Of a stretch of DNA of 64,000 bases, positions 21,381 through 64,000 are shown in pieces. Position 1 is the first letter of the stretch. The number at the start of each line of letters is the position of its first letter. A program made the translations under genes and the position numbers. The stretch comes from Arenicellales bacterium (lineage in GTDB: Bacteria > Pseudomonadota > Gammaproteobacteria > Arenicellales > JAJDZL01): assembly GCA_965214875.1 (NCBI GenBank), contig OZ243980.1, forward strand, positions 2,299,058 to 2,363,057, given 5' to 3'. The notes under the pieces are model-generated. The model was not told where the DNA came from. It saw nothing but the letters and a program-made list of their open reading frames with translations, and did not search any database.

Positions 21381-21381
21381 T

Positions 21382-41277: not shown

Positions 41278-41330
41278 GCATGATCAAAAAACCGACCCGA
41301 CTCCTCGATATTCTGAGCTCTCTTCCGGTA

Positions 41331-41404
<74 letters not shown>

Positions 41405-41460
41405 ACTAGCGCACCCGGTTCCCGCTCAAGTAAAAAAATCGCCGCTTAAGTCGCTCGCGG

Positions 41461-41542: not shown

Positions 41543-41565
41543 GGCACAAATAGTGTAAGTTTTCA

Positions 41566-41594
41566 ATGGTAAACGAGTTATTTTATTTTGTCAA
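41566..41594 (-). promoter_or_regulatory. Putative sigma70 promoter in the 110-nt AT-rich spacer upstream of tRNA-Tyr
   Basis: The minus strand reads TTGACA (41589-41594), a 17-nt spacer, then TACCAT (41566-41571), ~24 nt before the tRNA-Tyr 5' end. Confidence 0.45.
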
Positions 41595-41652
41595 ACCATA
41601 TCCTGGCAAAAATACGAATAGTTTTGCTGAAAGATATGATTTGCAACATTTC

Positions 41653-41728
41653 TGGAGCCCGCAGAGGGATTCGAACCCACGACCTGCTGATTACAAATCA
41701 GCTGCTCTTCCGTCTGAGCTATGCGGGC
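41653..41728 (-). tRNA. tRNA-Thr (anticodon TGT)
   Basis: The reverse complement is GCCCGCATAGCTCAGACGGAAGAGCAGCTGATTTGTAATCAGCAGGTCGTGGGTTCGAATCCCTCTGCGGGCTCCA, with the anticodon arm GCTGA-TTTGTAA-TCAGC. Confidence 0.92.
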
Positions 41729-43224: not shown

Positions 43225-43227
43225 GCT

Positions 43228-45924
43228 TCAGAATCCATATTTTGAACGACGCATCTCGAACGCAGCCTTGCCGCCTTCGAGAATTTCCTCGACTAGTTCG
43301 CGTACAGAAATGGAGTCAATCGAGGCCATATGCTCTCGAGCAATTCGCGCTTTCCCTTCTATGACTTCGCCCGCCGAAGTGAGGCCGAGAATAAGTTCGG
43401 CATCGCCGAGAACCGGAATATTCGCATTGTGCGTAGAAAACACGAACTGACGATTGCGCTTTTCCTGCCGCATAATCGGCACCACGCCCTCCGTAATGAA
43501 GCGGTTATCGAGATCATCTTCTGGCTGATCGATGACTAGCGGCACTGTCGATTCAAGCAGTAGAAGCAGCAATACGGCTGTTGCCTTTTGCCCGGTCGAG
43601 AGAGCTTGCAGCCTACGCCAGCTAGCAGGTGCTCCATCGTGTGCCGTATTTAGCTCGATATCGGTCGTTGCAGGCAATTCAAGCTCTTCTATGCGCATGA
43701 AGAAATCTAAATCGGCACCGGCGATTCGTTCTGCCGCACCAGGTGGCAGGTTGTAGTGTGCAATTAGAGATTCCCTGCCTTCCCGGCACCGTTGCGCGAG
43801 TTCTGCCAAAGACAGATTCGCATGCTTTCGCAAGCGTTCCAGCGCAGGAGAAAGATTACCGCCCAACTCGCGCAAGAGTTCTTCGAGAGGGTCGCGATTT
43901 CCAGCCATCGCAACTGCAACCCGCACACGCTCTCCAAGTTTCTTGCTCACCCTCTTTGCTGCGTTATCGAGTCGCCTGTATTCAGTGGACTTGATATCTT
44001 CCCACTCAGCCAAGAAGTTTCGGCGCTCGGCTTCGTGCGCATCCAGTTCCTGATTTAAACTTTGCATCCGGTCAGTTAGCGGACGCAACTCTTCGATCTG
44101 TTGGCGAAGTTGAATGAACTCTGCACCGTCAATATTAGACTTTTGAAGTTCGCGCAGGAGCTTTTCATAGTTTTGCTCGATTGTTTTCTTCCGCTCGCTC
44201 CAATGCAACTTAGTGTTGGCAATTGCTTCATCCGCTTGGGTAAAGATTGTGCCCAACTGCTCGTACAGAGCAACCAAGTTCTCGCTAAGTGTCGTTAGAA
44301 TTCCTTCAAGATTAGATAGAACATCAGCATTGGGCAACGTTTGAAGAGCTTTATAGGAAACGAAGGCTGTATCCACAGGCAATCCTTCTTTGAGTTCGTT
44401 ATGGATAGCGCGGTAGTAATCAAGCCGTTCATCCAGACTGGCAAATAGTCGCTCCTCGCGCAAGAGCCAGCTTTTTTCCTTTAGTCGCTCTTCAATGCCA
44501 GCCTGCTGAAATCTTCTATGCGTCTCCTCGAGACCGGGTAACGCCGCAAGCTGCTCATCAAGAATTCTCAACTGCCGGCGCACATCAACAATGCGAATCC
44601 GTGAGCGTTCCAATCCCTGGCTTACCCGCAACTTCCGTACTGAAAGAGCCGGATCCGATTCCGTGAACCGCCTCAGCAGAAGCGTTAGTTTTTCCGGGCT
44701 CTTTGTAAGTTCGGAGATCTCGTGCTGCCCATAAATTTCAACGCCAGGCATCACATCTTGAGGCGACAAGTCCAAGACTTTCCTCGCCTCATCCCTTACC
44801 ACTGGCGGATTCGGCACAGTCCTCTCAATCGTGTAATAACGCTCTGACGGTTTGTATGATCGTACCCTCAAAGAAATTTTCGTGCCGGGTCGCAAAACAT
44901 GGCGAATCACTCCTTCATGGCTCCGTTTGACATCCTCGCCTAGTGGGGTGAGATCAAGAGCATAGCGTATGCTTTCAATCATCGTCGACTTGCCGGTACC
45001 TCGTCCCCCTATAAGCACATTCAGGTTTTCGTTGAAATGTACAGCCGTGTCGCTAAGAAACCCACCTTCCCAAGTAATTGCTAATAACTCGGCATGGCTT
45101 TCGGGCCGCTCATCGCTATGCAGACGGACTCGTGACCCTGGGTCGAGAAATGCTTGTCGAAAAGCCTCTATCGATACTTTGGACATCTTGATAAAACATG
45201 AGGCACTTTGCTTTTTCAGATCTTCTGGATCATTCACGTCCGAAGCATTAAGAATCGCTACGGGGTGGTCGCGCTTGTGCTGGGCATCCTTATTCTCAAG
45301 AATCTGCCTAATGCCATCGGGCGCATCGCCGACAGGTCCTGGCAACGCACAAGCAATAAGTGCCGGATCTCTCCAGACATTGATTCGTGATTGCCCCGAA
45401 AGTTTTCTCAATAGCCCGCCTTCGGAAGCAACATGAGCGGCGATGCAAACTGCGCCCCAAGTCTTTGAGGATTCGAGCAGCTCGAGTGAATCCAATTTGC
45501 CTGTTGGGGGCGGTTGGTCGGCATCGAGGATTCCGCACTCGCCGATGAAACGTTCCAAAGATTCTTCCTTATCGGGGTCAAACAGGCATAGAAAGTGAAC
45601 GCCATCTTTCGCAACGGCTTCGAAACCGCTGAATGCGTGGATTTTCGCCTTGCGCGCGGCTCGCACAAGGCCTGCCGAATACGCTACACGGTAGTGATCC
45701 GTCACGGCAATGACTTCAATTTCATTTTCGAGACAAGCGTCGACTATCGCAGAATTGTATTCATCCTCCGACTTGAAGGGTGTTTTCTTGTTGTGAGTTC
45801 CAAGATAGGCGAATGGATTAACCTGCAAAGCGCAACGACGGAACCGCGCACCATTTGGCAGATCCAGCGTAGCCTGCATCTGGTCAGGAAGTGCGCGCGC
45901 AGAGTTCATGGATGCCGCATTCAT
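43228..45924 (-). CDS. PHP-phosphoesterase / SMC-Rad50-like ABC ATPase fusion protein (TrlF/Ppl-like architecture)
   Basis: PHP-like N-domain with VIAVTDHYRV (nt 45685-45714), GFEAV..GVHFLCLF and IAAHV. Walker A GGRGTGKST (aa 306-314, nt 44983-45009) is followed by a long charged helical region (aa ~430-660). The signature LSTGQK plus Walker B LVIDQPEDDLD (aa 775-806, nt 43507-43602) and STHN complete the ATPase. Confidence 0.75.
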   Translation of the reverse strand: MNAASMNSARALPDQMQATLDLPNGARFRRCALQVNPFAYLGTHNKKTPFKSEDEYNSAIVDACLENEIEVIAVTDHYRVAYSAGLVRAARKAKIHAFSGFEAVAKDGVHFLCLFDPDKEESLERFIGECGILDADQPPPTGKLDSLELLESSKTWGAVCIAAHVASEGGLLRKLSGQSRINVWRDPALIACALPGPVGDAPDGIRQILENKDAQHKRDHPVAILNASDVNDPEDLKKQSASCFIKMSKVSIEAFRQAFLDPGSRVRLHSDERPESHAELLAITWEGGFLSDTAVHFNENLNVLIGGRGTGKSTMIESIRYALDLTPLGEDVKRSHEGVIRHVLRPGTKISLRVRSYKPSERYYTIERTVPNPPVVRDEARKVLDLSPQDVMPGVEIYGQHEISELTKSPEKLTLLLRRFTESDPALSVRKLRVSQGLERSRIRIVDVRRQLRILDEQLAALPGLEETHRRFQQAGIEERLKEKSWLLREERLFASLDERLDYYRAIHNELKEGLPVDTAFVSYKALQTLPNADVLSNLEGILTTLSENLVALYEQLGTIFTQADEAIANTKLHWSERKKTIEQNYEKLLRELQKSNIDGAEFIQLRQQIEELRPLTDRMQSLNQELDAHEAERRNFLAEWEDIKSTEYRRLDNAAKRVSKKLGERVRVAVAMAGNRDPLEELLRELGGNLSPALERLRKHANLSLAELAQRCREGRESLIAHYNLPPGAAERIAGADLDFFMRIEELELPATTDIELNTAHDGAPASWRRLQALSTGQKATAVLLLLLLESTVPLVIDQPEDDLDNRFITEGVVPIMRQEKRNRQFVFSTHNANIPVLGDAELILGLTSAGEVIEGKARIAREHMASIDSISVRELVEEILEGGKAAFEMRRSKYGF

Positions 45925-50710: not shown

Positions 50711-52465
50711 TCAGGCGCCAACCCCGGGATTCGAGCCGTTCAAAACCAATCTAGGCTCATTAACGCGCGGCACTTCAATCGTGCCTGCATTCCTCAAGTA
50801 GTCCGCTACCACGTCCCAAACCGGAGGCCCCGGCGAAATCTCGCCGACAGTAGCCCATCCACTGACCAGGTAGATTTTGCTCGCTTCGATCAAGTCGCCA
50901 TTGTCGAGGCGAATGTCAGAAATTCGGTTGCCGAAATCCTTAAGCGGATCAATCGCATAGGTAAAGCCTCCGACCCGAACCATATCGCCGCCTTGTTGGA
51001 AAAACGGATCCGGGTTGAACGCATTGTCCGCGACATCCTCCAGTATCAGCTTGATCGTTTCGCCGGTCATTTCCCGCACATAGGTTTCAGGATAGGTCAT
51101 CGCGGTTTGACTAAGCACATCTTCCATCGTGACGGTGTGCTTCGGCAACACTGACGTACCCCAGCGAAAGCCCGGAGAAAGCGCAATTTCAGAGCCGCCA
51201 TGCTCAATCAAGGCATCACAAATCACTTGATCAAACGAGCCGCTGAAATTGCCTCGGCGATACAGCAGCGATTCAGACACCGCAAGCTGCTCTGCGAGTC
51301 GATCAGCATAAGGCTCGCGCGTGCGCGCAATCAGTTCATCCATGTCCCGGTCGGGCTCAATCAGGTTGCTGAACACCGGCACCAATCTATAGCGCGCCTC
51401 TTTAACGCCGCTGCTGCCGATATCCAAATCAAGCACGCCAAGAAACTTGCCGCTGGAACCAGCATTGGTCACCAAAGTGCTTCCGCCGTCGTTTTCGACC
51501 CGCACCGGTTGCGGCACCGCATCGTGGGTATGTCCGCCTAGAATCGCATCCAGTCCTGATACCTGGCTTGCGAGTTTCTTGTCGACATCCATGCCGTTGT
51601 GAGAGAGCAGCACGACGGCATCCGGACGATCCTCAGCGCGAATCTTGTCAATCAGATCCTGCAGCTCGCCCGACCGAATCCCAAACGTCCAATCCGGCAC
51701 GTTGCGCCTCGGATTGGCGATCGGGGTATACGGAAACGCTTGCCCGATGATGGCAATGTCGAACCCGCCCAGAGTGCGCATGGCGTACGGAGGAAACGCA
51801 TGCCCCGTAAATTCATCATGAACCGGCTTTTCGTCGAACAGCGCATCTTCGGTCAAAAAAATGTTTTGAGCAACAAAATCGCCGTTCGAAGCTTCGATGT
51901 TGCGGCGAAATTCTTCTGGCGTATAGGTAAACTCCCAATGGCCAGTGAACACATCGATGCCGAGAAGATTGCTTGCCTCGACCATATCCATGCCCCGCGT
52001 CCACAGCGATGTGCCGCTACCCTGCCAGGTGTCGCCGCCGTCAAGCAACAACGTACGGTCGCGACCATAGCTTTGCCGAAGTCTGTCGGCTAATGACTTG
52101 AGGTGCGCATAGCCGCCAAGCTTGCCGTACTTTTCTGCCAGCTCAGCGAAATCAAGGTAGGTGAATGCGTAGGCGGATGGCGAGCCGGCTTCAATGCCAT
52201 AATAGTCGAAAAACGATTTTCCGACCAGATGCGGAGGCGCTCCCCAAGCATCGCCGATGCCTATATTGATTCGCGGTTCGCGGTAGTAGACCGGATTGAG
52301 CTGGGCGTGAGAGTCGGTGATATGAATAAGCCGAACATTGCCAAATCCTTCAAAGTCGTAGAGTGAATCGCTCGCGCTTGCCGAAGCAGATGCATACGGC
52401 ATGGCAATGCCGGATGCAAACGCAGCCGACAAAGTTTGAAGAAATTCGCGGCGATCAATATTCAA
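50711..52465 (-). CDS. soxB: Thiosulfohydrolase SoxB
   Basis: Tat motif RREFLQ, a HITDSHAQ metallophosphoesterase motif and a 5'-nucleotidase-like C-terminus; 584 aa. Confidence 0.93.
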   Translation of the reverse strand: MNIDRREFLQTLSAAFASGIAMPYASASASASDSLYDFEGFGNVRLIHITDSHAQLNPVYYREPRINIGIGDAWGAPPHLVGKSFFDYYGIEAGSPSAYAFTYLDFAELAEKYGKLGGYAHLKSLADRLRQSYGRDRTLLLDGGDTWQGSGTSLWTRGMDMVEASNLLGIDVFTGHWEFTYTPEEFRRNIEASNGDFVAQNIFLTEDALFDEKPVHDEFTGHAFPPYAMRTLGGFDIAIIGQAFPYTPIANPRRNVPDWTFGIRSGELQDLIDKIRAEDRPDAVVLLSHNGMDVDKKLASQVSGLDAILGGHTHDAVPQPVRVENDGGSTLVTNAGSSGKFLGVLDLDIGSSGVKEARYRLVPVFSNLIEPDRDMDELIARTREPYADRLAEQLAVSESLLYRRGNFSGSFDQVICDALIEHGGSEIALSPGFRWGTSVLPKHTVTMEDVLSQTAMTYPETYVREMTGETIKLILEDVADNAFNPDPFFQQGGDMVRVGGFTYAIDPLKDFGNRISDIRLDNGDLIEASKIYLVSGWATVGEISPGPPVWDVVADYLRNAGTIEVPRVNEPRLVLNGSNPGVGA

Positions 52466-52568
52466 TTTCGACCTGCATGCGAGAAACCAGAATGCAGATC
52501 AGCCCGACCTTGCAAGATCGCGGTGGGTGGCTAATAAATTCACCTACCGCAATACCGAGATTGCTTCG

Positions 52569-52880
52569 CTACCGAAGAACTCGACTTTCCCACAGTGTAG
52601 CTTCGCGGTCGGCTTGAACGATCGCCTGATCGCTTTGTAGCTGCGCTTCGGCAACCAGAGCCGTCGCCTTTCCTAGATCTCCTTCCTCAGCTGCTTTTTG
52701 CGCATTTTTCAGAATCTTGGCTGTATCGCGCCACTCGTGACTGAGTTCGCCAGCCTGCTTTCGCGTTTCGTTCGCTTTGGCTAGCGCGGTGTTGAACGCT
52801 TCCACATCCGCATAAGCGGCCGAGCCCGCCGCAGCGAGCGCGGCCACCAAAAAAACACTTACAAGATTTCCTGTCTTCAT
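52569..52880 (-). CDS. Small periplasmic helical protein between soxA and soxB (possible SoxK/SoxAX-binding protein)
   Basis: The start MKTGNLVSVFLVAALAAAGSAAYA is a signal peptide, leaving a ~80-aa helical mature part. The SoxK assignment rests only on synteny. Confidence 0.4.
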   Translation of the reverse strand: MKTGNLVSVFLVAALAAAGSAAYADVEAFNTALAKANETRKQAGELSHEWRDTAKILKNAQKAAEEGDLGKATALVAEAQLQSDQAIVQADREATLWESRVLR

Positions 52881-52893
52881 CGTCTTCCTCCCA

Positions 52894-53742
52894 TCAGCGC
52901 CGCACGCCCGGACCATTGAATTCCAGACCATTGCTCATGTAGGTCAAGAAGTACTCCAGATTGCGGTACTCTTCGCTTTGCGCGGCAAAAGGCTTGGCCC
53001 GCACCTGCGAATTGCACCCGCCAATTCTGCGATGCAACGTTCCGATCTCGCCCCACTTGAGCCGATAGACAGGGAAATGGCTTGGGTGCCCCAGCGCAGG
53101 ACTCAGCATTTCGGTCCGGATCGCTCCGCCTGAACCGCCGACGTGGCAATCCGAACAGGCGAAATTCAATTGACCGCGCTTGGTATAGTAAAATTGCTTG
53201 CCCATTTCGTAGGCTGCCATGGCCCGCGGGTCATCCGGCACGACGACATTGATTACCTTGCCGCGAGTCGTATACGCCATGTAGGCTGAAATCGCGGCGA
53301 TATCGCCTTTCTTGTACTTCAGCGGCTTTTCGCCATTGGCTTCGCGGCATTGATTGATCGCAAGTTCTGCGGTGATCACCATCCCTTGCTCAACATCGAA
53401 ATATGGGTACATGTGCCGAACGCCAATACCTCCGTTTTCGAAGCAATCGGCATAAGACTTGCCATTGGCGAACGGCGTTTCAAACAGCTCCTGGCCTTTG
53501 TCAACCGCGATTTCATAAGGCGGAAACTCTTCAAGATCGTTCCATTGATCTCGCGCATTGGTATCGATAGAATAGATTCCGTTGATGAAGTCATCTTTCG
53601 GCGTATCCGGAAACTTCGTCAAGTAGTAGTTCTGAAACGCTGCTCGATCGACCTCGGGATCGGCAAACAGAGCAGCCGATGCCGCAGCCGCTACGCCGGC
53701 CGCGACAACATACGACAACAGTTTTTTCATAGCAATTTGCAC
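52894..53742 (-). CDS. soxA: Cytochrome c SoxA (single CxxCH)
   Basis: One heme motif CSDCH and a conserved downstream IGGCNSQVRAKP (distal Cys ligand region). Only one CxxCH is present, so it is the monoheme type. An alternative start, MKKLLS, lies at 53730. Confidence 0.9.
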   Translation of the reverse strand: MQIAMKKLLSYVVAAGVAAAASAALFADPEVDRAAFQNYYLTKFPDTPKDDFINGIYSIDTNARDQWNDLEEFPPYEIAVDKGQELFETPFANGKSYADCFENGGIGVRHMYPYFDVEQGMVITAELAINQCREANGEKPLKYKKGDIAAISAYMAYTTRGKVINVVVPDDPRAMAAYEMGKQFYYTKRGQLNFACSDCHVGGSGGAIRTEMLSPALGHPSHFPVYRLKWGEIGTLHRRIGGCNSQVRAKPFAAQSEEYRNLEYFLTYMSNGLEFNGPGVRR

Positions 53743-53774
53743 TCCTCAGTTTTATTCTCTGGGCTAGGCGCGCC

Positions 53775-54083
53775 TTAAGCGATGGTGTATTCCTTATCTC
53801 CAGATCCGCCCATGTTGTCGTGCCAATGGATCGCAACCGTGTCCCCGCTTTGCGGCCCGCGGAGCTTGAACGACAGATAGGGATTCTTTGAAATGGCCGG
53901 GCCCCAGTGGGCGCGAATCATTTCCTGCCCCTTCCAGTTGCAGGTCACCGCTTCAATGTAGTGAGCGGGAATCGGCTCGCCGGTCTTTTGATCCTTGCGC
54001 TGGCCGGTTTCCATCGGATGCTTGATCAGCACCTTGACTTCAGCGTCTTCGCCGAGCATCCGGACTTTTGCCTTGATGGACAT
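53775..54083 (-). CDS. soxZ: Sulfur carrier complex subunit SoxZ
   Basis: 102 aa with KHPMETGQRKD and NPYLSF motifs. Confidence 0.92.
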   Translation of the reverse strand: MSIKAKVRMLGEDAEVKVLIKHPMETGQRKDQKTGEPIPAHYIEAVTCNWKGQEMIRAHWGPAISKNPYLSFKLRGPQSGDTVAIHWHDNMGGSGDKEYTIA

Positions 54084-54107
54084 ATCAAAACCTCCTTTCG
54101 TCTTGCC

Positions 54108-54581
54108 TTAGCCGCCGCAGCCGCCAATGGTAACTTTGACTTCACTTGCACCGCGGTAGACGCTGCCATTGGATTTGACGAGGGCAATGACATCGGATGT
54201 CTTGCCCATCTTGATCCGCATCGACACCTCGGGCACTACTCCTGGCTGCAAGTCGAACGACGCAACCATCGGAGCAGGATTATTCGGAACCAGAACGGCG
54301 ATTGATTCGACATTGTCGATATTCGCCGTCACCTTGATCGGAACAACGGCTCCGTTTTCGGCAATTTCCGGACCTTTGACAACAATGTTGGCGGCCGCAT
54401 CGGCAACGCTTTGATCGCCGAACAAGGCATCTAGCGCAGCATCCAGCTCTTCAGCGTCAAACGCTGCCTGGGGGCGCGCCGCAAAAGCTGCGGTGGAAAA
54501 GCCCCACGATGCCGCAAGACCGACCAGACTGGCTGCGGCAGCACCTTTGAGCACTACCCGTCTTTGCTGATTTACTTTCAT
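54108..54581 (-). CDS. soxY: Sulfur carrier protein SoxY
   Basis: Tat signal QQRRVVLKGAAA and the diagnostic C-terminus VKVTIGGCGG. The ORF-track start at 54824 is an upstream extension. Confidence 0.93.
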   Translation of the reverse strand: MKVNQQRRVVLKGAAAASLVGLAASWGFSTAAFAARPQAAFDAEELDAALDALFGDQSVADAAANIVVKGPEIAENGAVVPIKVTANIDNVESIAVLVPNNPAPMVASFDLQPGVVPEVSMRIKMGKTSDVIALVKSNGSVYRGASEVKVTIGGCGG

Positions 54582-54601
54582 CGTACTTTCCCTCTTTCGT
54601 C

Positions 54602-54979
54602 TTATAGTGTGTGCACGTATGCCGTGATCTTGTCGATTTCCTCGTCGGTCAGAATCCCATGACGGCCAAACGGGGGCATCATCGTATTGGGGTTGGCAGC
54701 TGTCGCATCGTAGATTCGCGCTCGAAGCTTCGCTATGTCGGGAAATCGCTGCTGCATGAAAATTAGCGGCGGTCCATGCGTTCCGGGCATCAAGCCGTCC
54801 TCCATGATGTGGCACGAAAGGCAATTGCCTTTTCGACGATCAAATGCAATCTTTTTCCCTTCGGCAATGATGTCCGCCGCCGCGTCGGCATGGCCGACCT
54901 GCGGCTGGACCGCCAAAAATCCGAAAACGACCGCCAGCGTCGCCAGACCAAACGCTAAAGTTCCAATCAGTTTCTTCAT
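54602..54979 (-). CDS. soxX: Cytochrome c SoxX
   Basis: Signal peptide, a CLSCH heme motif and MPPFG. The ORF-track start at 55111 is an extension. Confidence 0.9.
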   Translation of the reverse strand: MKKLIGTLAFGLATLAVVFGFLAVQPQVGHADAAADIIAEGKKIAFDRRKGNCLSCHIMEDGLMPGTHGPPLIFMQQRFPDIAKLRARIYDATAANPNTMMPPFGRHGILTDEEIDKITAYVHTL

Positions 54980-55019
54980 TTTCCTTTTTCCTTTGACTGC
55001 GGTTATCGTTTTTTGTTCC

Positions 55020-55052
55020 AAACCGCATCGCCTAACCGTTAACATGCGGTTT
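55020..55052. promoter_or_regulatory. Perfect 9-bp inverted repeat in the soxX/arsR divergent intergenic region (candidate operator)
   Basis: AAACCGCAT (55020-55028), a 15-nt spacer, then ATGCGGTTT (55044-55052). A second, weaker IR, TGTGC-n9-GCACA, lies at 55092-55110. Confidence 0.4.
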
Positions 55053-55185
55053 GCAGTTTTGATGTCGATTATACTAAATGCCTTATCTGTGTGTGCAAAT
55101 TTTAGGCACAATTTTCTGTTCGGTTGCTGAGCTATCCCAAATCAAGCCTAGTTATACAGTTAAATCATTGAATGCAAATAAACCA

Positions 55186-55524
55186 ATGGATGCTGTCGAG
55201 TTGCAAGGAATGCAGAATCGCATTCCGCCGGCGACGCTTCGCGAGTTGGCGGATGAAGCCTGCGGCGTACTCAAACAGCTTGCAAACGCACTGCGGCTTA
55301 TGGCGCTATGCCATCTGGCAGAAGGCGAGAAAACGGTGGGCGAATTGCAAGCTCTCATCGGGCTTGAGCAGTCTTCGCCGCCTCAGCATCTCGCCAAACT
55401 TCGAAACGAAGGAATAATCCGCGCAAGGCGGAACTCCCGGTTGAAGCGCTGCTCGATCGTTGACGAAAAGATATTTCGGATCATTGAGTCGCCGCATTCA
55501 ATCTATTGCGTCCCAGCCGAGTAG
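55186..55524 (+). CDS. ArsR-family transcriptional regulator (SoxR-like by position)
   Basis: The pattern LKQLANALRLMALCHLAEGEKTVGELQALIGLEQSSPPQHLAKLRNEGII is an ArsR/SmtB wHTH, and the gene is divergent from soxX. I chose the MDAVELQ start; the ORF-track start is 55078. Confidence 0.8.
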   Translation: MDAVELQGMQNRIPPATLRELADEACGVLKQLANALRLMALCHLAEGEKTVGELQALIGLEQSSPPQHLAKLRNEGIIRARRNSRLKRCSIVDEKIFRIIESPHSIYCVPAE

Positions 55525-55640: not shown

Positions 55641-58600
55641 GTGATTGATTTTCCACCAATCGCGATTGTCGGCACGGCTTGCCGCTTTCCGGGCGATGCC
55701 GACTCGCCGCAACAGCTGTGGCAAAACCTGACAGAAGGCAAGGATTCTATCGGTCCGGTTCCTGACGATCGCTGGCCTACAGGCTTTTTCGACTTATCGG
55801 GACCGGAAACAACAGCATTCGCCAAAGTTGGAGGCTTTGTAAACGGAATATTCGACTTCGATCCGGTATTTTTCGGCATATCCCCGAGGGAAGCGGACAG
55901 CATTGATCCGCAGCAGCGAATGCTGCTTGAGCTTGCGCACCGGTCTATGGAAGATGCCTGCGTCGACAATCGCTCATTAAGCGAATGCCGCACCGGCGTA
56001 TTCGTCGGCATCATCAACCACGACTACGCCCGGCTGCTTCTCTCCAATACCATGCACATCAGCGCTCACACCGGCTTGGGCCGTTCGGGCAGCATCGCCG
56101 CGAATCGGATTTCGTACGTTTTCAACCTCACAGGACCAAGCATCGCGATCGATACGGCGTGCTCGTCATCGCTTGTCGCGGTGGATGCCGCCTGCAGATC
56201 GCTGAATCATGACGAATGCGATGTCGCGCTTGCTGGCGGGGTCAATGCTGTTTTGCTTCCGGAGAGCTATCTTGAATTCGGACGAGCGCAAATGCTTTCC
56301 GTCTCCGGTCGCTGTCGCGCTTTCGATGCGAAAGCCGACGGTTTCGTGCGGGCAGAAGGCGGCGGCCTGATCCTTTTGAAGCGCTTATCCGATGCGCTGG
56401 CAGACAGGGACCGCATCCGCGCAATCATCGCGGCAACGGCGGTCAATCAGGATGGGCGAACCGCAGGCATCATGTCTCCCAGCATCGATGCGCAAGTTTG
56501 CATGATGCGAAAAGCTTTACAGCGAGCCGATCTTCAGCCATCAGCGATTGGGTATGTCGAAGCGCACGGCACCGGCACGCAGTCAGGCGACACCGCCGAA
56601 GCCGAATCGATCGGAACGGCATACGGACGAAGCGCACGGCACCGAACGCTGCCGGTCGGTTCTGTCAAGACGAATATCGGGCATACCGAAAGCGCTGCCG
56701 GCATTGCCGGCCTGATCAAGGCGCAACTGTCAATTGAGCACAATGCCATTGTGCCGAATCTTCACTTCGGCACGCCAAATCCGGCGATCGATTTCAATGG
56801 GCTGGGCTTGCGCGTTCCGAGTAAAGTGGAGTTGCGGGATGGCGGCACCGACAGGCTGCGAGCAGCTGCGGTCAATTCATTCGGTTTCGGGGGCACCAAT
56901 GCGCACGTCATTTTGCGTCAAGCGCCTGCGCCGCAAATCAACCGCAAAAACAAAAGCGCCGCCTACGTGCTGCCGGTGGCAGCCCCGTCAGAGGAATTGC
57001 TCGAAAACCGAATATCCTCTATCAGCGAGCTTGCGCAAAGCAGTACGCCAATTCAAAACATCTACAGTTCAGCAGCGCGACAGCATGGCGGACGCTACAG
57101 AAAGACAGTGCTGATCCAGGAAGAGGCCGCTGACCACATAGATAGCCGCGTAGATTTTTCAAATACTCCAGCCGCACTGGAAGAACTGGGCGAGCCGCCT
57201 CATCTTTGCTTTGTCTTTAGCGGGATCGGAAGAAACTGGGGCAGCGCCGGCAGACAGCTCTATTCCTGCGAACCGCAGTTTAAGTCAGCCATCGACGATT
57301 GCGATGCGCTTTTCCGACAGCAATTCGACAACTCCATCATTCGCGGTGTGCTCGAACGCGGCAAGTCCCCCGAATCTGTAATCAGGGATCTGCACCCATT
57401 GCTGTTCGCGATACAGATCGGACTTTATCAGCTGTGGCATTCTTGGCACATTGTGCCTCAGTCGGTGCTCGGGCACAGCATCGGCGAAGCCGCGGCAGCA
57501 TGGGCATCCGGTGCGCTTACAATGCCCGAAGCGGTGCAAATCATCGGCGAGCGCTACCATGCATTCGAGCCGTTGGAGCATCAAGGTAAAATGCTCGCTG
57601 CCGCACTGGATGAGCAAACTGCGGCAGACATGGCGCGCGCATTCTCAGGCGAACTGCATCTTGCATCCGTCAACAGCCCAGCCTCGATTACTTTCTCGGG
57701 TTCGAAACAGGCTATTGAAGCGGTTGGCAAACAATTGCATGCAGCCGGAACGCGCCACCGGATGCTGGATATTAATGTGCCATTTCACTGCCCCTTGATC
57801 GAGTCGGTGCAGGGCGATGCATTGCAAGCTATCGACCGAAGCGGGGAACGGCAACAGGACATCCGATGGTTTTCCTCATTCGGCAAGCATATTGCCGGGG
57901 ATATCGTGCCGACAGGCGAGTTTTGGTGGCAAAACTTCAGCGCACCTGCCAATTTTCAACACGCTTTCGAACAGACGCACAGCGCCGGGTGCCGGACGTT
58001 TGTGGAAATCAGCCCCATACCCGCTCTGCTCACGGCGATTCATGAGAATCTCGATGCTTTGAAGTTCAAGGCAACGGTGCTGCCTTCCCTAATGCCTCAT
58101 GCTTGCGAGCGAACTTCAATGCTTCGTTCTGCCGGCAGACTGTTCGAGCTTGGCTCGGAGCCAGCTTGGCCGCGCCTGTGCCCTTTGTCAACACCCTGCA
58201 ACCTTGCGCCACTGCATTTTGAACGCCGCACCTATGCGAAGCAAGCGCCGCAACTCAACCATCGCAAGCAAAATGCCTTTACTTCCAAAATAGCCGCCAT
58301 TTATGATGAAAGCAGCGGATGCCGCAGCTATCGTTTCGATATCGAAAAATCCCATTGGCTCAAATCACATACCCTGCACGGGAAAATCGTTTTTCCTGCG
58401 GCCGGGTTCATCGCTGTCATTCTGGACACGCTAAATGAGCGGTGGCTTCAAGCGACAATGCAAGTCAGCAAAATCGGGTTCCATCGGCTGCTTGAAGTCG
58501 CAGAAAGCAAGTCGCACACTCAGGTGCGTGTGCTGATTTGCGAAAACTCATTGGATAGCGGACTCGAGTTGTCGATCGCCGATGCGGACGAGCCTGAATT

Positions 58601-61600
58601 GACGTGCGCTACCGCCACCGCCGACTGCGCCCTGCCGCCGGACATAAGCATCCGTAGCGAGGAGTCATTTGACAGCTGCACGATACCGCTCGCACCAGAT
58701 GAGATTGCCGCAAGCATGGAGCGGGCAGGATTTGCTGCGACAGACTTAGGCATTCCATTCAACGAAACATATCATGATGGCTCGCGTCTACTTAAGGCAC
58801 GGATTGAATTCGATGACTCCAAGCAAGATCATGCTGATCGATTGACACTAGATCCTGCCAAACTGGATGCCGTCTTGCGGATTGCCGGGGCGGCCTTCCT
58901 GCGCGGCGACCCCTTTATGCCCATATCAATCGGAAAGATCTGGATTGCATCATGCGAACTCGGCTCGTTCAACTGCCATGCGCGAAAAAGCAGTGAAATG
59001 GATTCCCGCATTCATCTAGATTTGGATTTGATGTCGGATGATGGCGATACCATTGCACAAATCAGAGAATTCGCGATCAAGCAAACCAGCACGCCTACGG
59101 CGGTGCGCGATTTTCAGGTTCGCACCCTCGTCCGAGTTTCGAAGACCATTGAACCGGCCGGCACAACGCCTCAGATTCACTCGGAGAACTACTTGGCCCA
59201 GCTGCAAACTTGCATTGGCGAGTTGTCAAAGAAGCATCAGCGCGAGCAATACTATTCGAAGGTGCGCCCAGTTCTCGACAGGTTAACGCTTTATCACACA
59301 GCCAAGTCGTTGCAACGATTGAAAGTGGATTTATCAAGCGCAAGCGAATTCAGCATTTTCGACTGCGCATTAGAACGCGGCATCACCGGCCTGCAGCGCG
59401 ATATTTTGCAAGGGCTGATCAATCTTCTAGCTGAGCATGGGGTGATTGAAATCGTATCTGAGCGATGCCGCGTTCTTAAAGAGATTGACACAAATCACCC
59501 TCCGCTCGCCGGAGAAGATTTTTTTGCGCGAAGCGAGAACGCAGGCTACATTTACGAATATCTGCTCGCGAACCAATGCGGGCGATTGCTGCCTGGGGTC
59601 CTTCAAGGCAAGATACAGGGCAACGAGGTGCTTTTTGACAAAGCCGGTCTTCAGCTACTTGAAAATCTCTACTCCCGCTCGCCAACCTGCAGAATCTACA
59701 ACGAGATTCTCGCCGAATCGATCAAGCTGGCGTTGCGCGGATGGGAGCTAGCCCGACCGATGCGCATACTAGAGCTTGGCGGCGGCACCGGCGCTTTGCT
59801 CGCGCGAATCGAACCGTTTCTGACCTCATCAGCGCAATACGTCTTCACCGATATCTCTTCGCATTTTGTATCCAAAGCCAAAGAACGATACAAAACATTG
59901 GAAAATCTTGAATTCAAAACACTGGATTTCGATGCGTCACCACATATCCAGGGATTTAAGCATGGCTCATTCGATCTTGTCGTGGCAACCGACGCTCTTC
60001 ATTGCGCTAGATTTCTTGATGCCACTTTGAAGGCGATCTGGAAATTGCTCCGTCCTGGAGGGATGCTTCATTTTGTCGAGCTGACAGATGAGCCAAGCTG
60101 GGCGAGGATCAGTTTTGCGATGCTGCCTGGCTGGCAGCAAGATATCGACGATGACAGGCGCGTTGACTCACCATGCAGAACAAGCTTGCAATGGCGAATG
60201 CTGCTTGAAAGCAATGGATTCAGCCTATCTGCCGCATATGGCGATCGAGAAGATAGCGGCGAATCGCTGCACACGGTGTTTATCGCTCAAAAGGTTCAAA
60301 ACGACCAGGTAGAGCCGAGCAAGATTGTGACAGAGCAAAATCGTCGCCACTGGCTGATATTTCAACACAGCGACATGGATATGCAGAAATTGATTGCGTC
60401 GCAGTCCCATGATCAGTTTGCCTGGGTGGGGTCGGCACCGAGTTTCACTGCCAGCGATCAAAGCTACCAAATCGATACGCAATGCCCAGAGCACTACCTT
60501 TTGATGCTGCAGGACCTGGACCGTAAAGGCTGTGCGCCGGATGCCGCTTTGTTCTTGGCACCCGACCTTGATTATTGCGACGAAAATCAGCCCATCGACC
60601 TTGATCGCTCGATTGCTTGCGCCATGATGCCGGTCCGCTTGCTGCAAACCTTAGACCGGCAGCCTGGCTCGCTACGCCATGTTGTGTTTGCCAGAATGCA
60701 GATCGGCGATCCAAGTTCCGAGCAAGCAGCCTATGCGCATTGCTTTGATTCGATCGTCAGCGGGCTCTTGCGCAGTGCCCGTAGCGAATACCCATCAATC
60801 AAATTTCACGCCGTCAGCATCCAGCGTGGCAAGAATGTCATGAAACAGATTGTCGACAGCATCTCAAGCAAGGATGCCGGTTTTGAAGTTTCAGTCGCAG
60901 GTGGCAAAATCACCACCATGCGACTGGAGCCCGCTCGCGTCTCGGCTTCGCAGCTAAGTGAGCCATTTATAGCTGCCTTGCGCCTCTCCAAAGGCAAAGG
61001 ATTGGAAAGGATCAAGTTCATCGTCACGCCTCGACCAGCTTTAGCTGACAAGCAAATCAGGATATCGGTTGCAGCCGCATCGCTCAACTTTCGCGACATC
61101 ATGGTCGCACTGGACGCGCTGCCTGAGCATTCAGTCATTAGCGGAAGAGCCGGGCGCACCTTAGGCATCGAATGCGCAGGAACGGTGATTGAATGCGGCA
61201 AGTCGGTTTCCCGATTCTCACCCGGCGACCAAGTCGCAGCGCTTGTTGCGGGCAGCTTGGCGACCTCAGTCGTAGCGGAGGAAAACTTCTGCGTGCGACT
61301 GCCTGATTCCCTCTCTTTCGAGTACGCAGCCGCATGGCCGGCGGCCTACATTACTGCGCATCTTTGCCTGCGAGAATTTCCGGTTTCGGACAAACCTTTG
61401 AACGTGCTGGTCCATACGGCATCTGGCGGCGTAGGGCTTGCCTTGGTTGGAATGCTTTGCAAATGTGATACGAGAATCTACTGCACTGCCGGCTCTGAAG
61501 CGAAGCGGGCATTCTTGCAAAACTATGTCCATTGCGAGACCTTCGATTCGCGTTCGTCCAGTTTCGCCGAGGAAATCTTGACACAAACCGACGGGGCCGG

Positions 61601-63017
61601 CATCCATGTCCTGATCAATACGCTGGGGACCAGTGCGGCAAAAGCCAACAGCCGGGTTCTTGCAGATGGCGGAACATTTATTGAATTGGGCAAATATGCC
61701 GGCGCGAACGATGCGAAACAGCTGATCCTTGATGCAAAACCGAAGATCAGACACGTTACGGTCGATTTGGATGCCCGCTGGCAATCCCACCCCGCAGACA
61801 TTGAGGATGCGCTCAATCAAGCCATTGCGCATATTCAATCAGATCAACATCGCGCCCTGCCTTTCACAGCGTTCCCCGCATCGAATGCGGCAAGAGCGTT
61901 CAAGCACTTGGCGGCAGCCAAGCAAATCGGAAAAGTGATCGTAGACTTTGATTGCGACTTGGGCAGTATTGAGCGCATCGAGCTGGACAAATCCTACTAT
62001 TCCAATGGATCCTGGCTGATCGCAGGCGGTACGCGCGGATTCGGCATGGCAACTGCCCTGTGGCTCGCACGACGCGGTGCAAAGTCCATGTTGCTCATCG
62101 GTCGTTCAGAGCATGTCCATCAGGAACTTTCAAAAGCGAGAGATGAGCTTCACGAGCGAGGCGCATCAATATCGGTGGCATCAGTAGACATCACCGATCT
62201 CGCCGATCTGCAAAAGTGTGTTCAGGAATTTGAAATGAAAAACCCGCCCATTCGCTTTGTCCTGCAATGCGCCATGCAGATCGAGGACCGTATGATTTCC
62301 AAGCTAAGCGGCGATACCTTGTCGAAAGTGCTGAAACCAAAAGTGATCGGAACATGGAATCTGCATAAAGTGACGAGTGATAGAATGCTGCAAAAGTTTG
62401 TCGTGTATTCATCTGTCACGTCATTGATCGGGCCCGCTGGCCAGTCGGCCTACACGGCAGCGAATTCGTTCCAAGATTCGTTTGCGGTGTATCTTCGCAA
62501 AGTCGGCATTCCGGCCGTATCAGTCAACTGGGGGGCGGTTTCGGACTACGGCTACATCTCCGACCATCCCGAGTCCGATTTGGCAGTGGGGACTCACGGC
62601 ATCGAACCGACGACTGCCGAATCGCTACTTGAGAAGCTTCCCGACATATTGGTAAAAACTGCTTCACCATGCATCGCGGTTGCTAGCGGTCCATGGGCAG
62701 AAAATGCTTGGCTGCCGGACGCATACTTTGATGCTGAACGCCGACCAGGGGTTGGCAGACGCGATGAGATCGGCCGATCAGATGGCGATGGCCTAGCAAA
62801 CAAAATCGAATCCTGCATTGCCAGAGTACTGGAGCTCGGAAGCGATTCAATTGACCGCAAAAGACCGATCGTTGACTATGGCATGGACAGTCTTTTGGCA
62901 GTCGAGCTAGCCCACCTGATCGAGGTGGAGTGCGATATCACCATCACCCCCTATCAGCTGATCGATCAAACCACAATTGAGCAAATTGCAAAAATCGGAG
63001 CGAACCAGAATCCGTAA
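55641..63017 (+). CDS. Single-module type I polyketide/fatty-acid synthase: KS-AT-DH-cMT-(psiKR)-ER-KR-ACP
   Basis: GTG start. KS: DTACSSS (Cys174, nt 56160-56162), EAHGTGT and NIGHTESAAG. AT: GHSIGE (Ser613, nt 57477-57479). DH: HTLHGKIVFP (His910, nt 58368-58370). cMT: LELGGGTG (nt 59769-59792). ER: HTASGGVG (nt 61413-61436). KR: GGTRGFG (nt 62025-62045) and Tyr2271 in SAYTAAN. ACP: GMDSL (Ser2417, nt 62889-62891). The protein ends ~40 aa after the ACP serine, with no TE, R or C domain. Confidence 0.9.
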   Translation: MIDFPPIAIVGTACRFPGDADSPQQLWQNLTEGKDSIGPVPDDRWPTGFFDLSGPETTAFAKVGGFVNGIFDFDPVFFGISPREADSIDPQQRMLLELAHRSMEDACVDNRSLSECRTGVFVGIINHDYARLLLSNTMHISAHTGLGRSGSIAANRISYVFNLTGPSIAIDTACSSSLVAVDAACRSLNHDECDVALAGGVNAVLLPESYLEFGRAQMLSVSGRCRAFDAKADGFVRAEGGGLILLKRLSDALADRDRIRAIIAATAVNQDGRTAGIMSPSIDAQVCMMRKALQRADLQPSAIGYVEAHGTGTQSGDTAEAESIGTAYGRSARHRTLPVGSVKTNIGHTESAAGIAGLIKAQLSIEHNAIVPNLHFGTPNPAIDFNGLGLRVPSKVELRDGGTDRLRAAAVNSFGFGGTNAHVILRQAPAPQINRKNKSAAYVLPVAAPSEELLENRISSISELAQSSTPIQNIYSSAARQHGGRYRKTVLIQEEAADHIDSRVDFSNTPAALEELGEPPHLCFVFSGIGRNWGSAGRQLYSCEPQFKSAIDDCDALFRQQFDNSIIRGVLERGKSPESVIRDLHPLLFAIQIGLYQLWHSWHIVPQSVLGHSIGEAAAAWASGALTMPEAVQIIGERYHAFEPLEHQGKMLAAALDEQTAADMARAFSGELHLASVNSPASITFSGSKQAIEAVGKQLHAAGTRHRMLDINVPFHCPLIESVQGDALQAIDRSGERQQDIRWFSSFGKHIAGDIVPTGEFWWQNFSAPANFQHAFEQTHSAGCRTFVEISPIPALLTAIHENLDALKFKATVLPSLMPHACERTSMLRSAGRLFELGSEPAWPRLCPLSTPCNLAPLHFERRTYAKQAPQLNHRKQNAFTSKIAAIYDESSGCRSYRFDIEKSHWLKSHTLHGKIVFPAAGFIAVILDTLNERWLQATMQVSKIGFHRLLEVAESKSHTQVRVLICENSLDSGLELSIADADEPELTCATATADCALPPDISIRSEESFDSCTIPLAPDEIAASMERAGFAATDLGIPFNETYHDGSRLLKARIEFDDSKQDHADRLTLDPAKLDAVLRIAGAAFLRGDPFMPISIGKIWIASCELGSFNCHARKSSEMDSRIHLDLDLMSDDGDTIAQIREFAIKQTSTPTAVRDFQVRTLVRVSKTIEPAGTTPQIHSENYLAQLQTCIGELSKKHQREQYYSKVRPVLDRLTLYHTAKSLQRLKVDLSSASEFSIFDCALERGITGLQRDILQGLINLLAEHGVIEIVSERCRVLKEIDTNHPPLAGEDFFARSENAGYIYEYLLANQCGRLLPGVLQGKIQGNEVLFDKAGLQLLENLYSRSPTCRIYNEILAESIKLALRGWELARPMRILELGGGTGALLARIEPFLTSSAQYVFTDISSHFVSKAKERYKTLENLEFKTLDFDASPHIQGFKHGSFDLVVATDALHCARFLDATLKAIWKLLRPGGMLHFVELTDEPSWARISFAMLPGWQQDIDDDRRVDSPCRTSLQWRMLLESNGFSLSAAYGDREDSGESLHTVFIAQKVQNDQVEPSKIVTEQNRRHWLIFQHSDMDMQKLIASQSHDQFAWVGSAPSFTASDQSYQIDTQCPEHYLLMLQDLDRKGCAPDAALFLAPDLDYCDENQPIDLDRSIACAMMPVRLLQTLDRQPGSLRHVVFARMQIGDPSSEQAAYAHCFDSIVSGLLRSARSEYPSIKFHAVSIQRGKNVMKQIVDSISSKDAGFEVSVAGGKITTMRLEPARVSASQLSEPFIAALRLSKGKGLERIKFIVTPRPALADKQIRISVAAASLNFRDIMVALDALPEHSVISGRAGRTLGIECAGTVIECGKSVSRFSPGDQVAALVAGSLATSVVAEENFCVRLPDSLSFEYAAAWPAAYITAHLCLREFPVSDKPLNVLVHTASGGVGLALVGMLCKCDTRIYCTAGSEAKRAFLQNYVHCETFDSRSSSFAEEILTQTDGAGIHVLINTLGTSAAKANSRVLADGGTFIELGKYAGANDAKQLILDAKPKIRHVTVDLDARWQSHPADIEDALNQAIAHIQSDQHRALPFTAFPASNAARAFKHLAAAKQIGKVIVDFDCDLGSIERIELDKSYYSNGSWLIAGGTRGFGMATALWLARRGAKSMLLIGRSEHVHQELSKARDELHERGASISVASVDITDLADLQKCVQEFEMKNPPIRFVLQCAMQIEDRMISKLSGDTLSKVLKPKVIGTWNLHKVTSDRMLQKFVVYSSVTSLIGPAGQSAYTAANSFQDSFAVYLRKVGIPAVSVNWGAVSDYGYISDHPESDLAVGTHGIEPTTAESLLEKLPDILVKTASPCIAVASGPWAENAWLPDAYFDAERRPGVGRRDEIGRSDGDGLANKIESCIARVLELGSDSIDRKRPIVDYGMDSLLAVELAHLIEVECDITITPYQLIDQTTIEQIAKIGANQNP

Positions 63018-63018: not shown

Positions 63019-64000
63019 TCAATTCCAGATATCGACATCTATGCCTTGCTCAATGAAGTGATCGGCACGATTGGATAGATATCGTTGAAAGTTCGGCTGT
63101 GCACGAAACGCTTCGCTTGAAACATAGGCAAAGAGCGACTGCGTGTGGAATATCTTAAACCATGCCTCAGAACGAATCACCTCGTTGCCATCTGCATCGA
63201 AAAATATGATCGTCGGAGCATAAGAAACCCCTAAGTCGGAAGCCCATTGCCGCGCTGTTGAAGCGGCACCCGAAGGCGTTACAAGTTCCTTGGTCGACCA
63301 CATGTCAAGCTGCGCCACATCGAACTTTTGGATCTCGTCCACAGTCCTCTGGTCGACTAGGACGCTGTCATGCAATGTTTCGCAGTTAGGGCAATCTCCT
63401 TGTTCGAAGAATACCGCCAGCGGCTTGCCGGACCGATTGCTCAGATCGTATGGGGGCAGCATGAAGAAATCCTTTGAAATGAGTTTACGGGACGAAGCGG
63501 ATTCAGGCGCGTTTTGCTGAACATATTCGCGGTATGCCAGCCGATCTTCCTGCCGCATCGACACGTAGTCGAGAGCGAGGCGAAACTGTTGCGGCGGGAC
63601 GTAGCCATTGAGGCGAAGCACCTTGTCCGCGCGCTCGTCGTAGAAAATCATCGTCGGGGTGAATTGCACCGCGAGGTCTGAGGAAAAGATTTTCTCAGTC
63701 GTCGAGCTTCCGTCTACGCTGATCACTTCCCGGTCGCCCCAAATGTTCAGCTCCACAACATCGAAATGCTCTTGAATCGTTTCGACGATATCTTTCTGGC
63801 TCAAGTTCCGCTCCACGAGTGCGTTGCAGTAGGGACATCCATCCTGATGAAAGAAATAGATCAAACGCTTGCCGTGCTCGGCCGCTTCTGCGGCATCTTC
63901 TCGAACATCCAGAAAACTTTCCTTGAACCATTGCGGATAGGTGGTTTCTTTGGCGCCCATGAACGCTCCTTGGGTTGCGGAGCTTTGCGCCAAGGCCATG
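63019..64000 (-). CDS. Tandem thioredoxin-fold protein (5' end probably outside the window)
   Basis: Two repeats each carry a CxxC motif (HQDGCPYCNAL and EQGDCPNCETL) with similar surrounding sequence. The family resembles the 181-aa protein at 50142-50687. The ORF reaches the window edge. Confidence 0.7.
   Translation of the reverse strand, partial: MALAQSSATQGAFMGAKETTYPQWFKESFLDVREDAAEAAEHGKRLIYFFHQDGCPYCNALVERNLSQKDIVETIQEHFDVVELNIWGDREVISVDGSSTTEKIFSSDLAVQFTPTMIFYDERADKVLRLNGYVPPQQFRLALDYVSMRQEDRLAYREYVQQNAPESASSRKLISKDFFMLPPYDLSNRSGKPLAVFFEQGDCPNCETLHDSVLVDQRTVDEIQKFDVAQLDMWSTKELVTPSGAASTARQWASDLGVSYAPTIIFFDADGNEVIRSEAWFKIFHTQSLFAYVSSEAFRAQPNFQRYLSNRADHFIEQGIDVDIWN

Follow-up and report, generated by a model that had tools for sequence, protein, structure and literature searches.

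Mycocerosic acid synthase (MAS) is an iterative enzyme which is offloaded by a separate acyltransferase and yields a methyl-branched fatty acid; its branches are derived from methylmalonyl-CoA and the enzyme carries no methyltransferase (MT) domain. SupA (Fieseler 2007) is said to consist of a single small module with ketosynthase (KS), acyltransferase (AT), dehydratase (DH), MT, enoylreductase (ER), ketoreductase (KR) and acyl carrier protein (ACP) domains in the order KS-AT-DH-MT-ER-KR-ACP, without a release domain. The Sup enzymes are small monomodular polyketide synthases (PKSs) proposed as the makers of methyl-branched fatty acids in sponge microbiomes (PMC4245539, PMC3908369). In surveys of sponge PKSs they are the predominant type; which organisms harbour them and what they make is not settled, and their original attribution to the Poribacteria has been questioned (PMC4245539). 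The present analysis concerns a type I PKS gene in a stretch of 64,000 nucleotides (hereafter the window) from an Arenicellales bacterium (contig OZ243980.1), where it is preceded by an ArsR-family regulator gene and lies next to the sulfur-oxidation genes soxXYZAB. The enzyme type is already known; new are its conserved pairing with the gene of a putative persulfide sensor and its usual place beside soxXYZAB. The reading favoured here, with some reservation, is that the protein is a Sup/MAS-like iterative synthase which would make C-methyl-branched acyl chains, would be induced by reactive sulfur and would depend on an unlinked release function.

The gene and the domains of its product are organised as follows (aa, amino acid positions in the protein):

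55641..63017, + strand: type I PKS gene, GTG start, 2458 aa, internal stops absent (open reading frame (ORF) and translation, Pfam)
55656..57077, + strand: KS with C-terminal extension, aa 6-376, extension to 479 (PF00109, PF02801, PF16197)
57210..58142, + strand: AT, aa 524-834 (PF00698, E 1e-45)
58329..59087, + strand: DH, aa 897-1149 (PKS_DH_N PF21089 and PS-DH PF14765)
59268..60290, + strand: C-methyltransferase (cMT), aa about 1210-1550 (Methyltransf_12 at aa 1368-1527; alignment with PDB 5thy)
60354..60866, + strand: structural pseudo-KR (psiKR), aa 1572-1742 (PF21394 Beta-ketacyl_N, 27.3 bits, cut-off 26.9)
60978..61943, + strand: ER, aa 1780-2101 (ADH_N, ADH_zinc_N and ADH_zinc_N_2 of Pfam, aa 1803-2101; TIGR02824, aa 1780-2101)
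62007..62543, + strand: KR, aa 2123-2301 (PF08659, E 2e-54)
62802..62993, + strand: ACP, aa 2388-2451, with GMDS2417L (PF00550, PF23297)

A sequence-only reading of the window had recognised a single 2458-aa ORF with KS, AT, DH, cMT, ER, KR and ACP, which is borne out by the hidden Markov models of Pfam; these add the psiKR, giving the order KS-AT-DH-cMT-psiKR-ER-KR-ACP in a single module without a release domain. The KS is matched with an E-value of 1e-85, with KAsynt_C_assoc reaching aa 479, and the cMT is matched by Methyltransf_12 with 72 bits (cut-off 30). A 7.4-kb ORF with seven ordered domain matches at such E-values cannot be of chance origin. The G+C content of the gene (0.52-0.57) is the same as that of the whole window. 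The protein ends 41 aa past the ACP Ser2417, close to the 40 aa or so estimated earlier, and its longest unassigned stretch is about 90 aa; a hidden thioesterase (TE), reductase or condensation (C) domain is therefore excluded. Both junctions proved exact on re-reading: the stop codon TAA of the PKS gene (63015-63017) is separated by 1 nt from that of a convergent thioredoxin-like gene (63019-63021), and 116 nt lie between the ArsR stop at 55524 and the PKS start at 55641. The absence of TE, condensation and phosphopantetheinyl transferase (PPTase) genes from the window also stood, as none of the 29 other ORFs scanned matched the PPTase, thioesterase, condensation or acyltransferase families.

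The translation carries the motifs DTACSSS, EAHGTGT, NIGH, GHSIGE, VPFH, HTLHGKIVFP, ILELGGGTG and GMDSL. Invariance of the catalytic residues was assessed in an alignment of 21 homologues of the same architecture, which are 35-47% identical to the window PKS. All of the following are invariant: Cys174, His309 and His348 of the KS; Ser613 (in GHSIGE), Arg638 and His716 (in VPFH) of the AT; H910 and P919 of the DH motif H910xxxGxxxxP919, together with G922 and D1076; E1378, G1380 and G1382 in motif I (ILELGGGTG) of the MT, which binds S-adenosylmethionine (SAM), along with D1404, H1454 and E1480; the GGVG of the NADPH motif H1925xxxGGVG1932 of the ER; K2234, S2257, Y2271 and N2275 of the KR, in which GGxxGFG is also present; and G2414, D2416, S2417 and L2418 of the ACP. 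The earlier statement that the recognisable active-site residues are all in place, SAM motif I included, is thereby confirmed, and all seven domains are real and look catalytically competent. The cMT was aligned with the C-MT of CurJ (PDB 5thy), query positions 10-350 falling on chain positions 61-402 with an E-value of 2e-44. Here ALH stands opposite VLH and vEl opposite yEa, and His1454 and Glu1480 match the conserved His and Glu of CurJ, which we take to be the catalytic dyad of that enzyme. The window cMT thus shares with the CurJ-type C-MTs the full lid and Rossmann core, SAM motif I, the His and the Glu.

It is scarcely credible that the gene or its MT is a decaying relic, like the inactive pseudo-methyltransferase of the animal fatty acid synthase (FAS). 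The low identity of the PKSs among the relatives (35-47%, against 52-90% for the neighbouring genes) and the very divergent DH would fit decay, but the ORF is uninterrupted in every relative, the SAM motif and the His/Glu pair are invariant and the CurJ match is full-length. Further, between the PKS genes of two related loci (L002 and L003, 91% identical) the ratio of nonsynonymous to synonymous substitution rates (dN/dS) is 0.22 over the whole gene, at most 0.35 in any block of 250 codons and 0.18 in the MT block. The gene is under purifying selection and its MT is intact, so that the relic explanation is already contradicted; the invariance of catalytic residues at 35-47% identity, together with the dN/dS of 0.22, argues for a functional PKS. 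The synonymous divergence (dS) between the two PKS genes is 0.20, a value inside the span of 0.08-0.30 given by the neighbouring sox and arsR genes, which argues that the PKS was co-inherited with its neighbours.

The best match of the PKS among the PDB sequences is MAS (9d2z, 685 bits), followed by Dictyostelium Pks16, modules of DEBS, CurL, the animal FAS and LovB. The NCBIfam models for Pks2 (NF041183, 845 bits, cut-off 2400), PfaA (TIGR02813, 294 bits, cut-off 1010) and Pks13 were all matched far below their cut-offs. In a collection of 5.8 billion proteins, the search for homologues retrieved P0001, which is identical to the window PKS and encoded on a 3.79-Mb contig, a second protein sharing 47% identity, and some 45 further clusters (2452-2499 aa, 35-38% identity) in which the domains are the same; many of these members sit on contigs of Mb size. 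KS identity is 58-70% within this clade of about 47 clusters and at most 52% to the other KSs compared, which were taken from species-representative genomes. In a neighbour-joining tree of 166 KS sequences, which was built without bootstrap and is indicative only, the 26 clade members included are monophyletic with no intruders, and reducing PKSs of a single module from Trueperaceae, Rhodobium, Streptomyces, Chthoniobacterales and other taxa stand as their sister group. The KS groups in this tree with the bacterial single-module PKSs; its placement relative to these and to the polyunsaturated fatty acid (PUFA) systems was a point that the sequence-only reading had left to be checked. A search of contigs with patterns from the 21-sequence alignment, which amounted to generic KS motifs, gave one clade member, from an Arenicellales metagenome-assembled genome (MAG; L012), among 80 of at least 600 matches; the contig search with the window PKS alone as query gave no match. 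A homologue search with the KS only returned short fragments of 50-63% identity, with no named Sup protein among the matches. Among the Arenicellales are the LS-SOB family, Candidatus Spongiicolonaceae and Candidatus Poriferihabitaceae, sulfur oxidisers that live in symbiosis with sponges (PMC10356861). The contig names, in metaMDBG style, agree with the pipeline behind published sponge genome notes, and an ankyrin-repeat gene adjoins the PKS in L004; a sponge-associated origin is plausible for the window PKS.

The gene neighbourhood was compared across 10 distinct related loci, up to 10 kb on each side of the PKS. No TE, C-domain, fatty acyl-AMP ligase (FAAL), PPTase, further PKS or non-ribosomal peptide synthetase (NRPS) gene was found beside the PKS in these loci or in the window, no Pfa gene in these loci, and no FadD- or PapA-type gene in them or in the window. 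Other bacterial KS-AT-DH-MT-ER-KR-ACP proteins (from Trueperaceae, Rhodobium, Streptomyces, Planctomycetaceae, Bacteroidota and cyanobacteria) are alike in module order and include members of the sister group. In other phyla, nine modules of this order were examined, and each has, within the protein or downstream of it, a release or continuation function, such as a C domain (L007), a TE (L011, L020), an NRPS module (L013, L017, L037), an AONS-like aminotransferase (L080) or a further KS (L010). The Arenicellales-type clade, in contrast, never has such a function attached or adjoining, and the missing cis release is thus a conserved property of the clade.

These data also bear on whether the PKS is one module of a larger assembly line of the cis-AT, trans-AT or PUFA type with its partners just outside the window, which is highly improbable. 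The window does end 1 kb after the PKS stop, and the same-order modules of other phyla are fused to or trailed by TE, C, NRPS or KS genes. On the other hand, PKS, NRPS and Pfa genes were seen in none of the 10 related loci, and the protein differs from PUFA and trans-AT systems in containing an AT of its own and one ACP only. The PfaA model is missed by a wide margin, and docking domains have no room, since 5 residues precede the KS and the chain stops 41 residues past the ACP serine.

The AT was aligned with those of DEBS and others: VPFH stands opposite YASH, and GHSIGE opposite GHSQGE, of the methylmalonyl-specific DEBS ATs. The Phe at the third position of xxFH indicates a malonyl signature and Arg638 a carboxylated extender, which upholds the earlier view that the AT is closer to the malonyl type, so that the cMT would be the source of the branches. 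In the KR, IED occupies the LDD position, indicating a B-type KR, in keeping with the DH acting next. The ER has Leu at the position where Tyr would signal 2S methyl stereochemistry, which hints weakly at the other methyl configuration.

As compared with MAS, the window PKS is likewise a fully reducing enzyme of the iterative type which ends in an ACP and possesses psiKR, ER, KR and ACP. It differs from MAS, and from Pks2 and others, in its malonyl-type xxFH motif and intact cMT, and it has no adjacent FadD loader or PapA acyltransferase and misses the cut-off of the Pks2 model. It shares the domain order, with the MT between DH and psiKR, with the animal FAS and the fungal highly reducing PKSs (HR-PKSs) such as LovB, and its MT is active-looking as in the HR-PKSs. 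However, it lacks the TE of the animal FAS as well as the C-domain and the trans-ER arrangement of LovB; it is a bacterial protein, with a KS placed among the single-module PKSs of bacteria. Its domain order by Pfam matches the architecture described for SupA, and it has no TE. The published AT primers for sup/swf genes target FPGQGSQW and QGEIAAA (PMC3908369), whereas the window clade has F[SN]GIGxxW. Thus, the enzyme would work like a hybrid, MAS-like in being iterative, ending in an ACP and being released in trans, and like the HR-PKSs and CurJ in taking its branches from SAM.

The genes and the region surrounding the PKS are as follows:

50711..54980, - strand: operon soxX-soxY-soxZ-soxA-(SoxAX-binding protein)-soxB, divergent from arsR-PKS
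54981..55185, no strand: divergent intergenic region (promoter scan and direct reading)
55186..55524, + strand: ArsR-family regulator, putatively of the SqrR/BigR type, 112 aa (HTH_5, NCBIfam, PDB matches, alignment of orthologues)
63019..63999, - strand: double thioredoxin-fold protein of periplasmic type (CPYC, CPNC), convergent with the PKS (Thioredoxin_2 twice)

The sox genes were called from Pfam matches to SoxY, SoxZ, SoxA and 5_nucleotid_C, from TIGR04486 (SoxB, 819 bits), TIGR04488 (SoxY) and SAXB, and, for soxX, from a cytochrome c match. The order in the window is soxB, SoxAX-binding protein, soxA, soxZ, soxY and soxX on the minus strand, arsR and PKS on the plus strand and the double-thioredoxin gene on the minus strand. 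The block is the same in L001, L085 and L087. A transposase and defence genes lie between sox and arsR in L002; in L003, arsR is there, even though uncalled as a gene, and the thioredoxin gene is fragmented; L004 has an ankyrin-repeat gene between the PKS and the thioredoxin gene. The PKS of L086 is directly divergent from soxX, with both arsR and the thioredoxin gene missing. In L092, a block arsR-PKS-trx-UDG-LplA-SDR-aminotransferase-APH is inverted relative to sox, and in L093-95, which represent one locus type, arsR-PKS-trx lies beside leuCD, with sox absent from the 2.2 kb seen beyond arsR. Overall, arsR is found on the same strand 26-116 nt upstream of the PKS in 9 of the 10 distinct relatives, and the convergent thioredoxin gene is usually 0-4 nt from the PKS stop or overlaps it. 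The PKS adjoins soxXYZAB in 8 of the 10, a common but not obligatory arrangement, and in most relatives the arsR-PKS unit is divergent from soxXYZAB. The identities to the window copies are 74-89% for SoxA, 65-76% for SoxB, 52-72% for the thioredoxin protein, 56-68% for ArsR and 35-47% for the PKS.

The regulator most likely starts at the ATG at 55186 rather than at 55078, as the resulting 112 aa fit the orthologues of 103-122 aa. It exceeds the cut-off of NF033788 (57.8 bits, cut-off 55), and its best PDB matches by phmmer are SqrR (6o8k) and BigR (3pqj). The Cys in LMALCHL and that in the C-terminal SIYC align with the two sensing cysteines of SqrR/BigR, presumably C41 and C107 of SqrR, and both are kept in all 8 orthologues. 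The protein is best described, from these alignments, as an SqrR/BigR-type persulfide sensor. It has the winged helix and both sensing cysteines in common with SqrR of Rhodobacter capsulatus and BigR of Xylella and Agrobacterium, and differs in scoring below the equivalog level and in that its gene heads a PKS. The known SqrR/BigR regulons comprise sulfide-detoxification genes (sqr, blh) and not a PKS. The regulator stays with the PKS where sox is inverted away (L092) or is unseen within 2.2 kb (L093-95), and since it follows the PKS when sox separates, it would belong to the PKS more than to sox. The label of a sox regulator, which the sequence-only reading had attached to it, is thus not retained, whereas the linkage with sulfur oxidation which that reading had pointed out is no accident of one genome, as the recurrence of sox and arsR beside the PKS attests. 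Promoter and terminator scans detected no terminator-like site in the arsR-PKS gap.

In Paracoccus pantotrophus, an ArsR-type repressor (SoxR) and a periplasmic thioredoxin (SoxS) are encoded beside the sox genes. The window resembles this arrangement in having ArsR-family and thioredoxin-fold genes beside soxXYZAB; it differs in that the regulator follows the PKS and that other Gammaproteobacteria encode the double-CxxC protein (326 aa) away from sox. The 5' end of the thioredoxin gene lies at the window edge, with the signal-peptide region outside the view; a signal peptide is present in the orthologues, in which CPYC and CPNC are both invariant. The protein shares 55-60% identity with counterparts in many sulfur oxidisers among the Gammaproteobacteria, including Sedimenticola, Acidiferrobacterales and Thioalkalispiraceae. 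In two genomes (Sedimenticola and another gammaproteobacterium) the orthologues have unrelated neighbours, with no PKS, sox or arsR. Insertion of the PKS within a soxR-soxS pair was considered and rejected, because these orthologues are not beside sox or arsR. The link with the PKS is accordingly clade-specific, and the thioredoxin protein need not act in the PKS pathway.

Putting these features together, the following course of events may be proposed. The AT would load malonyl units, which the KS would condense, and in some or all rounds the cMT would transfer a methyl group from SAM to the alpha carbon of the beta-ketoacyl-ACP. Full reduction would be the work of the B-type KR, the DH and the ER, in that order. 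Repeated rounds would build a saturated methyl-branched fatty acyl chain on the ACP of the enzyme itself. In the absence of a release domain, the chain would have to be removed by a protein encoded elsewhere, either an acyltransferase (PapA5-like or of the glycerolipid type) or a free thioesterase being a candidate, and a lipid of the membrane or envelope is the most likely destination of the product. The arsR and PKS genes would form a two-gene transcription unit, the first gene encoding a repressor that would sense persulfide or polysulfide through its two cysteines. With such an SqrR/BigR-type repressor ahead of the PKS, expression would probably rise with reactive sulfur, together with sulfur oxidation. 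No mention was found in the literature searched of a PKS paired with an SqrR-like regulator or placed beside soxXYZAB, nor in the Sup literature examined of sup genes linked to sox or to such a regulator. A loose precedent is provided by the effects of sulfane sulfur on actinorhodin production in Streptomyces (PMC7533328).

A number of observations weigh against this proposal. As regards the control by reactive sulfur, the top NCBIfam match of the regulator, the BigR model NF040642, is far under its equivalog cut-off (59.3 bits, cut-off 155), and in L086 the PKS persists although the regulator and the thioredoxin gene have both been lost. Of the 37 positions at which its 8 orthologues all agree, the window regulator deviates at 6; among the changes are S66P in the recognition helix (SQHL), Y89C in the wing and LL to SP in the last helix, so that DNA binding or control may be weakened in this genome. 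No operator conserved across the relatives was found upstream of arsR, where there are only weak shared 9-mers. As regards the chemistry, the first AT motif (57210-57260) reads GIGRNW (clade consensus GIGxxW) against the near-universal GQGSQW, the DH has DAVLR (58866-58880), its Arg being invariant in the clade, where DxxxQ/H is usual, and the DH is the most divergent domain of the protein (19-35% identity among clade members). The enzyme could thus be atypical in the substrate it selects or in dehydration. The sequence does not reveal what the product is, how long its chain becomes, how often it is methylated or whether the enzyme works iteratively, and the evidence for an origin from a sponge symbiont is circumstantial.

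It is possible, if somewhat doubtful, that the sulfur linkage reflects an inherited gene order only, the PKS being constitutive or otherwise controlled and ArsR acting elsewhere or on itself. All the relatives belong to one lineage, as seen in the SoxA identities, and a shared order could therefore be ancestral; sox adjacency is broken in L092 and L093-95, L086 is without arsR, and the thioredoxin orthologues elsewhere have unrelated neighbours. That no conserved operator was found and that the window regulator is changed at conserved DNA-binding positions point in the same direction. Against this, the outer flanks vary and yet arsR and the PKS remain contiguous where L002 has an insertion, L092 an inversion and L093 a relocation. 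ArsR-family repressors, moreover, typically head the operon under their control.

Iterative synthesis of a whole chain has to be distinguished from the elongation of a primer, in which the PKS would add one or a few methylated C2 units to a product of the type II FAS and yield 2-methyl acids or, once these are elongated further, mid-chain methyl-branched ones. MAS, its nearest relative of known structure, acts on long acyl primers, and the GIG motif of the AT leaves the loading behaviour open. The mid-chain branched acids proposed for the Sup PKSs would, in addition, need stage-specific methylation (PMC4245539). Such an elongase nevertheless seems unlikely, as neither a FAAL/FadD-type loader nor an N-terminal loading ACP was found in the window and the 10 relatives, though synthesis de novo and primer elongation are not separable by sequence.

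The locus offers a complete and apparently functional gene of the Sup-type architecture in a defined genome, on a closed 3.8-Mb contig, with about 47 related clusters available for comparison, and the persulfide-sensor hypothesis names a condition under which its product may be looked for. If the regulatory hypothesis is true, animal symbionts would couple the remodelling of their lipids to sulfur oxidation; should it be false, the locus would still provide a clean MAS-like enzyme that takes its branches from SAM and not from methylmalonyl-CoA. Mid-chain methyl-branched fatty acids are abundant in sponges and their producers have never been pinned down. As a speculation to which rather little weight should be given, a persulfide sensor in sulfur oxidisers of sponges could gate a release-less PKS that makes SAM-methylated envelope lipids during sulfur oxidation, and the clade could be one source of the Sup enzymes and the mid-chain branched acids.

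Some further observations were made on the surroundings of the locus. A larger block comprising trx, UDG, LplA, SDR (adh_short), class III aminotransferase and APH kinase recurs in L092, L093-95, L003, L004 and L085; from trx to APH it moves with arsR-PKS through inversion and relocation, and its genes look housekeeping. Defence and mobile genes, among them a transposase, GmrSD_N, AAA_15/AAA_21 ATPases and Schlafen/AlbA_2 with HATPase_c_4, recur near the locus (L002, 3629-9076; L086, 20171-25814; window, 42025-45924). L001, the closest relative, carries, about 1.4 kb beyond the thioredoxin gene (19931-23335, - strand), a 1134-aa fusion of a squalene epoxidase (FAD_binding_3/SE) with a squalene-hopene/oxidosqualene cyclase, possibly representing a sterol-type pathway in a gammaproteobacterial symbiont; the window ends short of the equivalent position. 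A second lineage with linked sox and PKS genes was considered in a Thiotrichaceae MAG (L027), where soxYZ (1168-1968) lies about 6 kb from the PKS genes (7937-19286). It was set aside, being a multi-gene PKS of different architecture with KSs 52% and 48% identical to the query, and the proximity is probably a coincidence.

In the divergent intergenic region, a sigma-70-like promoter for soxX was predicted at 55097-55068 on the minus strand. Just downstream of it, at 55021-55053, lies a perfect 9-bp inverted repeat, AAACCGCAT-N15-ATGCGGTTT, which may be an operator or a hairpin in the 5' untranslated region; its sequence is not conserved in the relatives, and L001 has an analogous repeat of another sequence.

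The rest of the window is a ribosomal-protein/rpoBC/tuf region, in which L17 and rpoB were confirmed and the other genes assigned from their order and size. Two copies of tuf (23345-24535 and 39928-41118) flank the rpoBC/ribosomal block, which is the usual arrangement, and genes for tRNA-Trp, Thr, Gly, Tyr and Thr lie at 39825-41728. The rpoB gene (32214-36454, - strand) is split into two overlapping ORFs in different frames, with the break near 33110-33125, where one base is missing in 'gtc aag g(g)c gat gag' and adding the base restores the reading; the split is most likely a homopolymer indel of the long-read assembly and not biological.

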